Below, piece after piece: positions 60,507 through 64,000 of a DNA stretch of 64,000 bases. The notes under the pieces were generated by a model. The model saw nothing but the letters and a program-made list of their open reading frames with translations. It made no database searches and was not told the DNA's origin. The stretch comes from Candidatus Babelota bacterium (GTDB lineage: Bacteria; Babelota; Babeliae; Babelales; Vermiphilaceae). The DNA lies in the NCBI GenBank assembly GCA_049325595.1, contig JBMOLF010000001.1, positions 32,001 through 96,000 on the forward strand, in the 5' to 3' direction. Position 1 is the first letter of the stretch. Every line of letters starts with the position of its first letter. Position numbers and translations under genes: made by a program.

Positions 60507-61496
60507 TTATTTAACAATTTGTAAGAATCTATTCCAACGTACCCGTTTCCAAAAATCTATTGGATGTTTTATAAGATCAACAATCCACCAATCTTCGTTG
60601 CTATCAACTGACCAAATTCTGAACAAAATACGCGCATGGATATATTTACCATCAATAGGTCCAAAATAGCGACAATCTTGACTGCCACGACGATTATCTC
60701 CCATACACCAATATTGATTTTTACCTAATTCTATATAAAAATCATCAGTTCCATTCCAATAATTTTTGCTTCCCGGTTGCGGTGGACGCACACATTGTGG
60801 TTTAGTCTCTGCAACAAATGGTTCAATTAAAATTGGCTTGCCATCACGATATACAATACGATCAGGAGTTATGCGATAAAATGGTTGATCTTCATATGAT
60901 ACTGAAGGATCATATGAACGACGCACTTGATATTCATAACGCAATTGCGTAGCAACAAAGTCATTAAATTGTGATGAGTGTAAATAACCGTGAGAAATCC
61001 ATTTTAAAGCTTCTTGCTCAACGTTTTTTTGTGCAATCGCGGGATCAACCTTCCATAAATCAATTAAGGGATATTTATTAATATAAGGTTCATTAAGTTT
61101 TACATCATTAAGATATATTACTGGTTTGCCATCTTCAATTACCCCACGAATTTTATCACCCGGAATACCTATTACTCGTTTAGTCCAATTTGAAGGTCCC
61201 CATACATATTGCTGGAAAAGATAGGTGAGTGGATTTGATGAATAATTAAAAAGCGGGTCGTTAAAAGCAATTATTTCGCCACGTTGTGGAGCTCTAAATA
61301 GATAGGTAAATTTATCTGCAAAAAAACGTTCTCCAACTAACATAGTTGTTTCCATCGAACCAGTTGGTACTTGATAAAGACCAAATCCAATAGTTCTAAT
61401 TAAAAACACCACCGATAATAAAAAAATCATTTGTCCTAATGATTCCAAAAAACTTTTTGGTGGTTTATTAGTTTTATTTTTTGAAAATATTTGCAT
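60507..61496 (-). CDS. lepB: Signal peptidase I
   Basis: PTGSMETT, KRVIGIPGD and MGDNR..SQDCRYFG. Confidence 0.95.
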   Translation of the reverse strand: MQIFSKNKTNKPPKSFLESLGQMIFLLSVVFLIRTIGFGLYQVPTGSMETTMLVGERFFADKFTYLFRAPQRGEIIAFNDPLFNYSSNPLTYLFQQYVWGPSNWTKRVIGIPGDKIRGVIEDGKPVIYLNDVKLNEPYINKYPLIDLWKVDPAIAQKNVEQEALKWISHGYLHSSQFNDFVATQLRYEYQVRRSYDPSVSYEDQPFYRITPDRIVYRDGKPILIEPFVAETKPQCVRPPQPGSKNYWNGTDDFYIELGKNQYWCMGDNRRGSQDCRYFGPIDGKYIHARILFRIWSVDSNEDWWIVDLIKHPIDFWKRVRWNRFLQIVK

Positions 61497-61538: not shown

Positions 61539-62518
61539 TTATACCAAAAAATACAAGGGATCAACTTGTCTGCCAAACATATGCACTTCAAAATGCAAGT
61601 GTGAGGCATCTTTCCCCTTTTTATGCACATGACCTGTTGACCCTACTTCACCAATCAAGGTTCCTTTTTGTACTTTAGTGCCAACTGGTGCATGTATTTT
61701 GTGTAAATGAGCATAACGAGTTCTATATTTATTGTTATGAACAATTTCTACCATATTCCCGTAACCAGAATAATAGCCGGATCGTATTACCACACCAGTT
61801 TCAGCTGCTTTTACGGGTGTACCTTGGGAAGCAGCCATGTCTATCCCCGTGTGAAATCCACGTGGTTTTTTTCTTGGACCAAAAAATGAACTCAACCAAA
61901 ACTGAGCCCGCTCAATTGGCCATGCAAGACTAATATCATGCTGTAAATTAGCTGGGCGGCTTGAATAAATTTTCTTCAATCGCCCGGAAGACACGATTGG
62001 TCGTGGCCGTTTAGGAATCACTTTGCGTTTGCGTTCTGGTACTTTTGGTTTAGTAGCGTCAAGCACCTGATCACTATAATCACGCCATTCATCAAGATCT
62101 AAATGGTTTAACAAATTATCTAGTTTTTCTGCTTTTAAATAATCAATCATTGATTGACGCAAATAACCAAGTTCGCGATTTACCACGACAAAATTAGTTT
62201 CTTTGGCTTCATTTTCTGCTGATTGATTTTTTTGCGAGCGATCAACTGCACGAGCGACTTTAACAGCAAGGTGTGAATATCGCTCGCCAGCTACTTTCCC
62301 AGATTGTCGATCTCCTGGGCAGCTAACGTATTATAGTCATGTAATACTTTTTTGAGCGCAACAATATATGATTGATATTCTTGCTTGAGCTCTAACATTT
62401 TATCAGCTTGTCGCACAAAAAAGCGGTATTCAGCATACAATAAAATACTTAAGCCACTGGCAACAAGGGTGAAAAATAAAAAAAAATATTTACTTAATTG
62501 ATTGATACATAGCTTAAT
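61539..62518 (-). CDS. M23-family metallopeptidase, probably expressed via a -1 frameshift at 62294-62300 (frame 0: 62518-62291; frame -1 continues to 61539)
   Basis: HTGID, YAHL and HLHFE motifs in the 3' ORF; the upstream frame encodes a TM anchor plus coiled coil ending CTG-GGA-AAG-TAG. Confidence 0.75.
62234..62316 (-). promoter_or_regulatory. Putative programmed -1 ribosomal frameshift signal
   Basis: AGGAG, 11 nt, G_GGA_AAG, TAG, then stem GCGAGCGAT pairing with GTCGCTCGT or ATCGCTCGC. Confidence 0.7.
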
Positions 62519-62553: not shown

Positions 62554-63264
62554 TTAGACCATTGATAATGCTTCATTATTATGCTCTATCCATCCTATTA
62601 CAGATCCTTGTTTAACTTTGCACCAAGTCTGTTGTTGTTCTTTTATTATAACCTCGGAGCCTTTTTTTAATGTCCCAACTATTGGATATTGCACTTGTGG
62701 CCCCGCATGTAAACAAATCTGATCAGTACAAATAGCAGTAACTGTTTGTGCTTGATAATATTTTGTATATAAAATAGTACCAACACAAAGCATATTCAGA
62801 CCAGCTAAGAGTACCAGTGTCTTCTTTTTTCGACAATAGGTATACCATATAATAAGACTAAAAAACAAAACCCAACTTATTAAAAAAATCAGTTGAAGCA
62901 TCCCTAGTGAAGTTTGACTCCATGTTTGGATTGCTATTTTTTTTTCTTGATCTTGTACACCAAGAAGCAAAGCAACATTATTAATTTGCTGTTGGGCTTT
63001 TTGATATATTGATGAAGTTGAATTTGTCTTTTGTGCTTTACGCCATGCCCATAATGCCTGTGGATAATTTTTTAAACAGTAATAACAATTACCAATGTTA
63101 TACCAAACTGCACTACTCTTTTGTTTAATTTCTTGATAAGTAGTCAATGCTTGTTCAAATTGTTTTTGTTTATACAAATGGTTACCACGCAAAAAAGTTT
63201 CTTGTGTTGTTGCACTCAAACAGATGCTTACCGCGAGCAATAGACTAAAGATCAGTCGTTTCAT
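62554..63264 (-). CDS. BatE-like TPR + TM + SH3b protein
   Basis: GNHLYKQ..F..A, WYNIGNCYY TPR; C-terminal HAGP...GSEV...W.KV...GW; ATG overlaps the upstream TGA. Confidence 0.75.
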   Translation of the reverse strand: MKRLIFSLLLAVSICLSATTQETFLRGNHLYKQKQFEQALTTYQEIKQKSSAVWYNIGNCYYCLKNYPQALWAWRKAQKTNSTSSIYQKAQQQINNVALLLGVQDQEKKIAIQTWSQTSLGMLQLIFLISWVLFFSLIIWYTYCRKKKTLVLLAGLNMLCVGTILYTKYYQAQTVTAICTDQICLHAGPQVQYPIVGTLKKGSEVIIKEQQQTWCKVKQGSVIGWIEHNNEALSMV

Positions 63265-64000
63265 ACCAGCTCCTCCCAAAAAACTACCCATTTATGCGCA
63301 CGATCAAACAAATCAGCAAATTGATTTTTGTCTTTAAACAACCCAAAACGGGCTTCAGATAATTGTTTCCAAAAATCTTCCCATTGATGTTGTATTTGGC
63401 TAGGAACTGCACGATATTTAAATACTGATGCTATTTGATTTTCAAAATCTGCTTCTTGATCGATTGCCGTTTTTTGTATCACAAAAGATCTAACTTCTTG
63501 ATACAGCAATTGATAGTTCATTGTTTTTTGTGCTTTGCTAATGCTTTTCTGAACCTTTTTTAAGGCAAAAACATGAGATGACATGAATGGTAAACTTCCT
63601 TGTTGAAGCATGCGAAAAATAATTAATCCTCCCGAGGCTCCGGCAATGAGTATGCAAAGCATTATAAAAAAATTCCAGGGAATAATTTTTTCAGTTGTGG
63701 CATTCCATGGCCCCTCTGCTAATGCAGGTATTGCACTATCATCTTCTTTTTTTTCAGTTAACTCTTCTGGTCCTAATTGGTTTTCCTGAATCGGTTGATT
63801 ATTTTTTTGGTTATTAACCGCAATCACATGTATTGTTAAAGGAGAAGTAGTAAGAGTACGGTATGCTCTTTTTTGTGTGTCAAAATAGATAAATTTTTGT
63901 GCAGGAATTTCCCAATCACCTGCTTGTGTTGCTTGAATTATATACTCAAAAACTTTCTTTTGTTGATTATTATCTTGCTGAATTACCTGTTTTTTTGATT
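63261..64000 (-). CDS. BatD-like protein (partial; N-terminus lies beyond the window)
   Basis: Frame stays open to the window edge: KKVFEYIIQATQAGDWEIPAQKFIYFD...YRTLTTSPLTIHV, then a TM segment. Confidence 0.7.
   Translation of the reverse strand, partial: SKKQVIQQDNNQQKKVFEYIIQATQAGDWEIPAQKFIYFDTQKRAYRTLTTSPLTIHVIAVNNQKNNQPIQENQLGPEELTEKKEDDSAIPALAEGPWNATTEKIIPWNFFIMLCILIAGASGGLIIFRMLQQGSLPFMSSHVFALKKVQKSISKAQKTMNYQLLYQEVRSFVIQKTAIDQEADFENQIASVFKYRAVPSQIQHQWEDFWKQLSEARFGLFKDKNQFADLFDRAHKWVVFWEELV

Follow-up and report, generated by a model that had tools for sequence, protein, structure and literature searches.

In the 64,000-nucleotide window analysed here (the whole stretch, G000:C1:32001-96000), which belongs to the draft genome of an amoeba-associated Candidatus Babelota bacterium (G000; 1.29 Mb in 24 contigs), the minus strand carries a gene that, judged by its translation, encodes a membrane-anchored cell-wall endopeptidase in the form found in Dependentiae, composed of a transmembrane (TM) helix, a coiled-coil-like stretch, a linker and an M23 peptidase domain. 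The anchor and the peptidase occupy different reading frames. The reading that we prefer, with a probability of roughly 0.45, is that the gene has undergone a real one-base deletion at a slip site found across the family, and that the loss is tolerated through -1 ribosomal slippage, which would yield the full-length enzyme. That slippage happens here, its rate and the relevance of either product are inferences. The family-wide A tract described below is a more solid new observation than the frameshift of the window: the linker of the M23 genes looks like a slippage site, and the break in the window appears to fall on its local equivalent.

Layout of the split gene and the missing base

The two frames were followed by direct reading and by translation. 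The 0 frame (TM frame) encodes a protein of the form ...KYFFLFFTLVASGLSILLYAEYRFF...QEIDNLGK*, with ...IKLCINQLSKYFFLFFTLVASGLSILLYAEYRFFVRQADKMLELKQEYQSYIVALKKVLHDYNTLAAQEIDNLGK* as its C-terminal portion and CTG GGA AAG TAG as its nucleotide end, and the peptidase lies in the -1 frame. The frames overlap at 62330-62294, with the heptamer G_GGA_AAG in phase inside the overlap, and the full-length protein can be read solely via a -1 shift. The first-pass annotation of this stretch had described the same two-frame layout, including the TM helix, the ending CTG GGA AAG TAG and a peptidase open reading frame (ORF) that begins at an internal GTG, and all of this was borne out. The heptamer (62300-62294), the Shine-Dalgarno (SD)-like motif AGGAG (62316-62312), the stem arm GCGAGCGAT and both of its possible partners also lie where that annotation had placed them. 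The features of the locus, in nucleotides (nt), amino acids (aa) and base pairs (bp), are as follows.

62527 to the TAG at 62293-62291, minus strand: open TM (0) frame, from direct reading and translation
62291-62518, minus strand: 0-frame ORF, its short N-terminal tail followed by a single TM helix and a coiled-coil-like stretch; it closes with ...DNLGK TAG
62432-62488, minus strand: predicted membrane helix YFFLFFTLVASGLSILLYA, from translation
62312-62316, minus strand: SD-like AGGAG, 11 nt upstream of the heptamer
62294-62300, minus strand: shift-prone heptamer G_GGA_AAG in the phase of the TM frame, aligning with the A10-A12 tract of other genera
62286-62300, minus strand: interval that contains the missing base, from alignments with G001 and the sister-species proteins
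62291-62293, minus strand: 0-frame stop TAG, immediately 3' of the heptamer
62243-62293, minus strand: predicted hairpin of 15 bp with one bulge, from folding
62287-62279 with 62258-62250, minus strand: GC-rich hairpin core, the arm GCGAGCGAT (6 nt past the heptamer) pairing with GTCGCTCGT
62234-62242, minus strand: alternative exact complement of the 5' arm, ATCGCTCGC, unused in the minimum-energy fold
61539-62330, minus strand: -1 frame of 263 open codons, comprising the linker, the FVVVNRE..YLRQS region and the M23 domain, with stop TAA at 61541-61539
61557-61856, minus strand: Peptidase_M23 domain, residues 159-258 of P0001 (the -1-frame protein)
61539-62186, minus strand: 215-aa ORF from the internal GTG 62186, the gene-caller form, lacking the membrane anchor, from the ORF list

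The ORF list holds only two entries at the locus, the 215-aa ORF (GTG 62186) and a 49-aa ORF (TTG 62440). The peptidase part matches Pfam Peptidase_M23 (PF01551) with an E value of 2.1e-30 and 105.2 bits, against a curated cut-off of 28.7. The metal-binding motifs HxxxD and HxH of family M23 are both intact in P0001 (FHTGID, and HLH within SHLHFE).

The within-genus comparison comprised the DNA of one genome of the same genus, G001, together with protein sequences of the sister species and of P0004. In G001 the TM helix and the M23 domain are joined in a single 322-aa ORF that begins with ATG. Relative to this ORF the window is short by one base just past GGGAAAGTAG, where G001 reads GTG GGA AAG TAT TAT AGC GAG. 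AAG and GAG are 8 nt apart in the window; the spacing in G001 is 9 nt and that of the sister species 3 codons, and the missing base is confined to 62300-62286. The closest recorded proteins, five sister-species variants of ~84% identity (P0003, P0124, P0125, P0126 and P0127), read ...DDLGKLASERYSQLAV... unbroken, and P0004 is unbroken too. Once the -1 step is made, the window protein reads ...DNLGK-VAGERYSHLAV... and is collinear, residue for residue, with those of the sister species. A metagenome scan for sister-species DNA gave 11 loci, the best of 51% identity and none of this genus.

The start of the TM frame is uncertain. The frame holds no ATG, GTG or TTG before TTG 62440, itself inside the helix, and the start at 62518 given by the first-pass annotation is an ATT codon. 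The triplets ACC ATT AAG are common to the window and G001, which makes ATT 62518 a possible start, and the 0-frame product would then measure 75 aa. The ATG with which the G001 gene begins aligns with ATC 62506-62504 of the window. In the sister-species proteins the gene callers place the starts inside or past the helix. An ATG at 62510 was considered and rejected, as it lies in the peptidase frame, meets a stop after 6 codons and would require two shifts.

The quality of the assembly was assessed by a census of frame changes, in which G001 ORFs were compared with G000 for ORFs of at least 200 aa having a match of at least 45% identity (n = 518). Filtering for genes split into adjoining pieces that lie in different frames yielded four candidates, and only the M23 gene consists of two abutting pieces of high identity (56% and 77%). 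Of the others, one is a degraded remnant, one is a match of 41-42% situated where a contig ends, and the third match is 10 residues long. The G000 assembly is clean, the M23 gene being the only clean mid-gene break among the 518 conserved ORFs, and the exact 215-aa ORF is recorded from two contigs (NCBI, Logan), of which the second assembly may derive from the same reads. Examination of the peptidase for signs of decay, in an alignment with 122 homologues, showed one deviation among 51 columns of at least 90% conservation. This deviation is located in the out-of-frame first residues, and deviations in the true frame at conserved columns number zero. The peptidase part is 74.3% identical to that of G001, versus 74.4-74.8% for the sister species, and there is no rate excess. 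Possible signs of a pseudogene are one frameshift and, less clearly, the missing canonical start; a very recent inactivation would look alike. The clean assembly, the record from a second assembly and the undecayed peptidase suggest that the one-base deletion is probably real, and either young or harmless.

The contrary view, that the break is a sequence or consensus artefact and the organism possesses the extra base and a continuous ORF, appears quite improbable. It would suit a draft genome in 24 contigs, and a single base does restore the collinear ORF (...LGK[L/V]AGERYS versus ...LGKLASERYS). However, G000 has no general indel problem, unlike G001 (48 of 545 genes) and G014 (7 genes in 400 kb), and the site is made of G3, A3 and T1 instead of a long homopolymer, while the A7 and T9 runs of the same gene are intact. 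The truncated ORF also occurs in the second assembly, albeit possibly from the same reads.

Some further observations on the genomes came from the same comparisons. The degraded remnant, C17:17082-17544 of G000, lies outside the window and is the sole other disrupted conserved gene seen in this genome; its G001 counterpart has 386 aa, of which residues 13-74 and 303-385 match, in three frames. The count for G001 (48 of 545) was obtained in the reverse comparison, and some of the seven G014 genes are broken repeatedly. Both are single-contig genomes (comparison loci L033-L094 for G001 and L095-L114 for G014), and their frame changes look like sequencing indel error or, alternatively, widespread slippage-tolerant decay. 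An alternative genetic code was rejected for G000: 25 of the 518 best matches hold stops, but these are a mixture of TAA, TAG and TGA and occur at alignment ends or in shadow ORFs.

Putative slip signals at the junction

Ordinary reading of the gene would stop at the TAG and give a peptide of ~75 aa, consisting of the TM helix and the coiled-coil-like stretch. On the preferred reading, ribosomes would pause at the heptamer, with the stop next to it, the hairpin 6 nt further on and the SD-like motif 11 nt back, and a fraction of the paused ribosomes would slip back by one base to produce a protein of ~326 aa with the junction ...DNLGK-VAGER.... The deletion would be tolerated because its position is a slip site. 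Since the window offers only G3A3, slippage there would have to be ribosomal. The homopolymer runs at the break (G3, A3 and T1) fall short of the runs of at least 9 A or T that lead to frequent RNA-polymerase slippage in bacteria, according to passages of PMC5009743, and transcriptional slippage in the window was rejected, its runs being only 3 nt long. A split gene with re-initiation was rejected as well. The first start in the peptidase frame past the junction is GTG 62186, 36 codons on, and its product, having neither anchor nor signal, would not serve as a periplasmic enzyme.

The predicted fold of the 69 nt past the heptamer has an energy of -21.5 kcal/mol (z -2.47), as strong a value being reached in 3 of 200 shuffles, and equally strong folding is found in 0.47% of 4000 random 69-nt coding windows of G000. 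In a 151-nt context the overall z is just -0.26, and the same hairpin persists. The corresponding position of G001 also folds into a hairpin (-16.7 kcal/mol, z -2.24), formed with a different 3' arm; the heptamer and a hairpin at this site are common to the window and G001 only. In-phase heptamers of the X_XXY_YYZ type occupy 4202 of 317,613 codon positions, equivalent to 0.16 expected per 12-codon overlap. The particular heptamer GGGAAAG occurs in phase once in G000 against 7.1 expected (830 long ORFs), and 6 times in G001 against 7.7 expected, a depletion thus seen in G000 only. The 3' end of the G000 16S rRNA is ...CACCTCCTT, with the anti-SD sequence CCTCC present. In E. coli, according to passages of PMC5009743, G_GGA_AAG is highly prone to shifting. 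A measured -1 rate for this heptamer was sought, and the motif is absent from the main text of PMC4066793. As a side observation, AAA AAA AAA is strongly avoided in the ORFs of at least 200 aa of both G000 and G001.

The first-pass annotation had interpreted these signals as a programmed -1 frameshift with a fixed product ratio, in which the two 3' stem partners might act as a switch. The heptamer, the stop beside it, the SD-like motif and the hairpin are all real, and the site aligns with the A tract of the family; the break itself is not conserved. The orthologue check proposed with that interpretation found G001, the five sister-species variants and P0004 to be continuous, as are 28 of 33 orthologues overall, and a conserved programmed frameshift therefore fails at the level of the genus. 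An evolved dnaX-like cassette, equipped with a regulatory switch, is the most improbable of the explanations that we considered. Its layout does match that of dnaX, the heptamer being preceded by the SD-like motif at 11 nt and followed by the stem core at 6 nt, and two possible partners do exist. Against this, G001 has neither the break nor the SD-like motif nor the 3' partners, and the minimum-energy fold uses one 3' partner only; the proposed switch between the two has no support, and the fixed product ratio is conjectural.

The A tract of the linker in other genera

A peptidase match was found in 39 of the 40 genomes of relatives, whose proteins are publicly named Dependentiae/Babeliales; in 6 of the 39 the match is only a weak one of the paralogue kind. 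The usable orthologous loci number 33, the window and 32 from relatives. G006 (cut by a contig end), the second, anchor-less G029 copy and G005 (in which lepB is also split) were set aside. The second M23-type copy of G029 (L129, G029:C1:602900-605800) is an open frame without a membrane helix. In 28 of the 33 orthologues a hydrophobic segment homologous to the predicted helix shares one open frame with the M23 domain, and the remaining five are broken.

The linker contains an A10-A12 run in 15 of the 33 loci and an A9 run in one more (G037). In the protein alignment the lysine run encoded by this tract aligns with the GK columns of G001, which correspond to the position of the heptamer. The HxH motif follows the tract at a distance of 569-707 nt (451 nt in L126), and the loci that carry the tract are L003, L005-L008, L011, L012, L015-L018, L115, L118, L120, L125 and L126. 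All five broken orthologues break exactly at the tract or heptamer site, and four of them need a -1 shift:

G000 (window): GGGAAAG, -1
G014: A10, -1
G024: A10, -1
G037: A9, -1
G023: A11, +1

Sampled conserved ORFs of three of these genomes showed no other frame changes (0 of 52 in G024, 0 of 20 in G037 and 0 of 24 in G023). The G014 break may be an assembly error, given the 7 frame-changed genes in 400 kb, and counts for little as independent support.

The composition of the tract is also distinctive. Among the 17 loci with a lysine or A run in the linker (five encode only KK), the tract is pure A in 16, the exception being G033. Elsewhere, KKK is written entirely with AAA in 64 of 441 windows (seven genomes pooled), versus 44-60% expected from codon use. 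Runs of at least ten A, counted genome-wide on both strands, are few: 2 in G004 and G014, 3 in G022, G012, G025 and G007, and 6 in G024 and G039. In each of these eight genomes the linker tract is one of those 2-6 runs. Past the tract, the other frames meet a stop after a median of 1 codon, versus 3 codons elsewhere in the same genes (Mann-Whitney p 1.3e-4). A shared hairpin after the A tracts was looked for and not found, z being below -2 in only 1 of 16 (range -2.5 to +1.6). Taken from these sequence features, the A9-A12 tract is a candidate conserved site of slippage or phase variation.

We regard as doubtful, though worth stating, the broader proposal that the junction of anchor and enzyme is an old recoding site of the Dependentiae. 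It would consist of an A10-A12 tract in most genera and of a dnaX-like -1 cassette replacing that tract here; the site would set the ratio of short peptide to hydrolase, and slippage would be so frequent that the frame of the DNA could flip between species (5 of 33) harmlessly. Genera with the A tract would slip by RNA polymerase or by ribosome sliding. A different possibility is on/off phase variation, that is, a heritable switch of which this genome would represent the off state. The A9-A11 tracts are broken in 4 of the 16 tract-bearing orthologues, and breakage of this sort is typical of slipped-strand switches, according to passages of PMC3711429. However, the window has no long repeat at its break (G3, A3), so reversible switching at a high rate is not expected there. 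Phase variation is a serious rival for the A-tract genera; it is very improbable for the window and does not explain G000.

Several observations weigh against tolerated slippage in the window. Within the genus no other lineage is broken, all close relatives having a continuous frame. The heptamer is older than the break, being in frame in G001 (GTG GGA AAG), and is needed for nothing in the continuous relatives, and the AGGAG motif is not present in G001. In-phase A_AAA_AAG is over-represented in G000 (160 observed versus 82.5 expected), which suggests that heptamers ending in AAG are cheap there; the G001 counts are 160 versus 64.2 (ORFs of at least 200 aa in both genomes). ARAGORN finds both tRNA-Lys UUU and tRNA-Lys CUU among the 38 tRNAs of G000, and with tRNA-Lys CUU present AAG is expected to be less shift-prone. 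In passages of PMC5009743, the shiftiness of AAG is tied to a single Lys tRNA, and the two Lys tRNAs of Thermus are tied to its use of polymerase slippage. The canonical start is missing ahead of the TM helix, which could be a second lesion. Of the 33 orthologues, 17 have no slippery tract, and the genomes are related, such that the counts overstate independence. Finally, the case was picked for its frameshift-cassette look, and the coincidence of heptamer, SD-like motif and hairpin is partly a matter of selection.

Several of these points favour a recent null allele, in which a spontaneous one-base deletion inactivated the gene, and the heptamer, hairpin and SD-like motif were inherited or arose by chance. 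We consider this rather unlikely, although it agrees with the continuity of all close relatives, the in-frame heptamer of G001, the presence of tRNA-Lys CUU and the possible second lesion (ATG in G001 versus ATC here); moreover, a second M23 paralogue (C10:49381-49890) could cover the loss. The 263 C-terminal codons would be clean because the event is young. On the other hand, a null allele requires chance to have placed the deletion no more than a few codons from the only site in a gene of ~326 codons at which the family retains a slip tract, and this is the only clean break among 518 genes. The lack of decay and of rate acceleration and the peptidase match in 39 of the 40 relatives also argue against a loss of the gene. 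If the allele is null, the window holds an ordinary broken gene, and the conserved A tract of the relatives still needs explaining.

Likeness to known recoded genes and genomic surroundings

The layout of dnaX in E. coli consists of an SD sequence, a heptamer (A_AAA_AAG) and a hairpin. Like dnaX, the M23 gene has orthologues that differ at one and the same position, where this genus carries a heptamer with SD-like motif and hairpin and 15 other genera carry a long A run, and a short and a long product with a common N-terminus are predicted. Unlike dnaX, in which the shift gives the short product, a shift in the window would give the long one; its heptamer is G_GGA_AAG, its break is not conserved and its products are predicted only. 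According to passages of PMC3711429, species differ in how dnaX is recoded, some using ribosomal frameshifting and others transcriptional slippage, and for Thermus dnaX passages of PMC5009743 describe RNA-polymerase slippage on an A/T run. In addition, iterated AAA codons lower protein output, and ribosomes slide on homopolymeric A stretches (PMC4363877).

The window resembles the lambda G/GT genes in its heptamer (G_GGA_AAG in lambda also), in the direction of the shift and in that the shifted product is the longer fusion. They differ in that the lambda shift lies in a structural gene of a phage and is conserved among phages, whereas a chromosomal cell-wall enzyme is concerned here, and its relatives need no shift. 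The gpG/gpGT shift of lambda is a -1 frameshift (PMC5009743, in the passages used). The same source describes compensatory (“corrective”) frameshifting or poly(A) slippage that rescues indels in the endosymbionts Buchnera and Blochmannia. The likeness to the window is that a low rate of slippage, on a slippery sequence, would compensate for an indel in a needed gene; the difference is that long A runs and RNA polymerase are involved in those endosymbionts, versus only G3A3 in the window.

In architecture the gene resembles those of EnvC, MepM/YebA and NlpD, M23/LytM proteins with a membrane anchor or a coiled coil that belong to the divisome and elongasome. It shares with them an N-terminal anchor, a coiled-coil-like stretch and a C-terminal M23 domain; its HxxxD and HxH motifs are intact, as in active endopeptidases, and the JGI labels on the relatives read “MepM/NlpD”. 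We know of no recoding in EnvC, MepM/YebA or NlpD. In the literature collection searched, no report of recoding in genes for M23 or other cell-wall hydrolases, or in Dependentiae, came up, and the main text of PMC3711429 contains neither “M23” nor “peptidase”.

The gene of the window is a possible new case of an already known type of recoding. If slippage is used here, such recoding would extend to a chromosomal cell-wall hydrolase. This would also be the second gene, after dnaX, for which different mechanisms of slippage lead to the same pair of products in different orthologues, and a small-genome symbiont would have a simple means of restraining a potentially self-damaging enzyme or of dividing its output. 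In practice, such genes are annotated by the pipelines as truncated proteins of 215-290 aa, which misses the anchor and hides the pattern.

The M23 gene is flanked upstream by a gene for a TPR-SH3 protein and downstream by lepB (signal peptidase I). The order on the minus strand, TPR-SH3 membrane protein (62554-63291), anchored M23 peptidase and signal peptidase I (60507-61496), is the same in G001 and G022, and the neighbouring ORFs of G014 look alike by translation.

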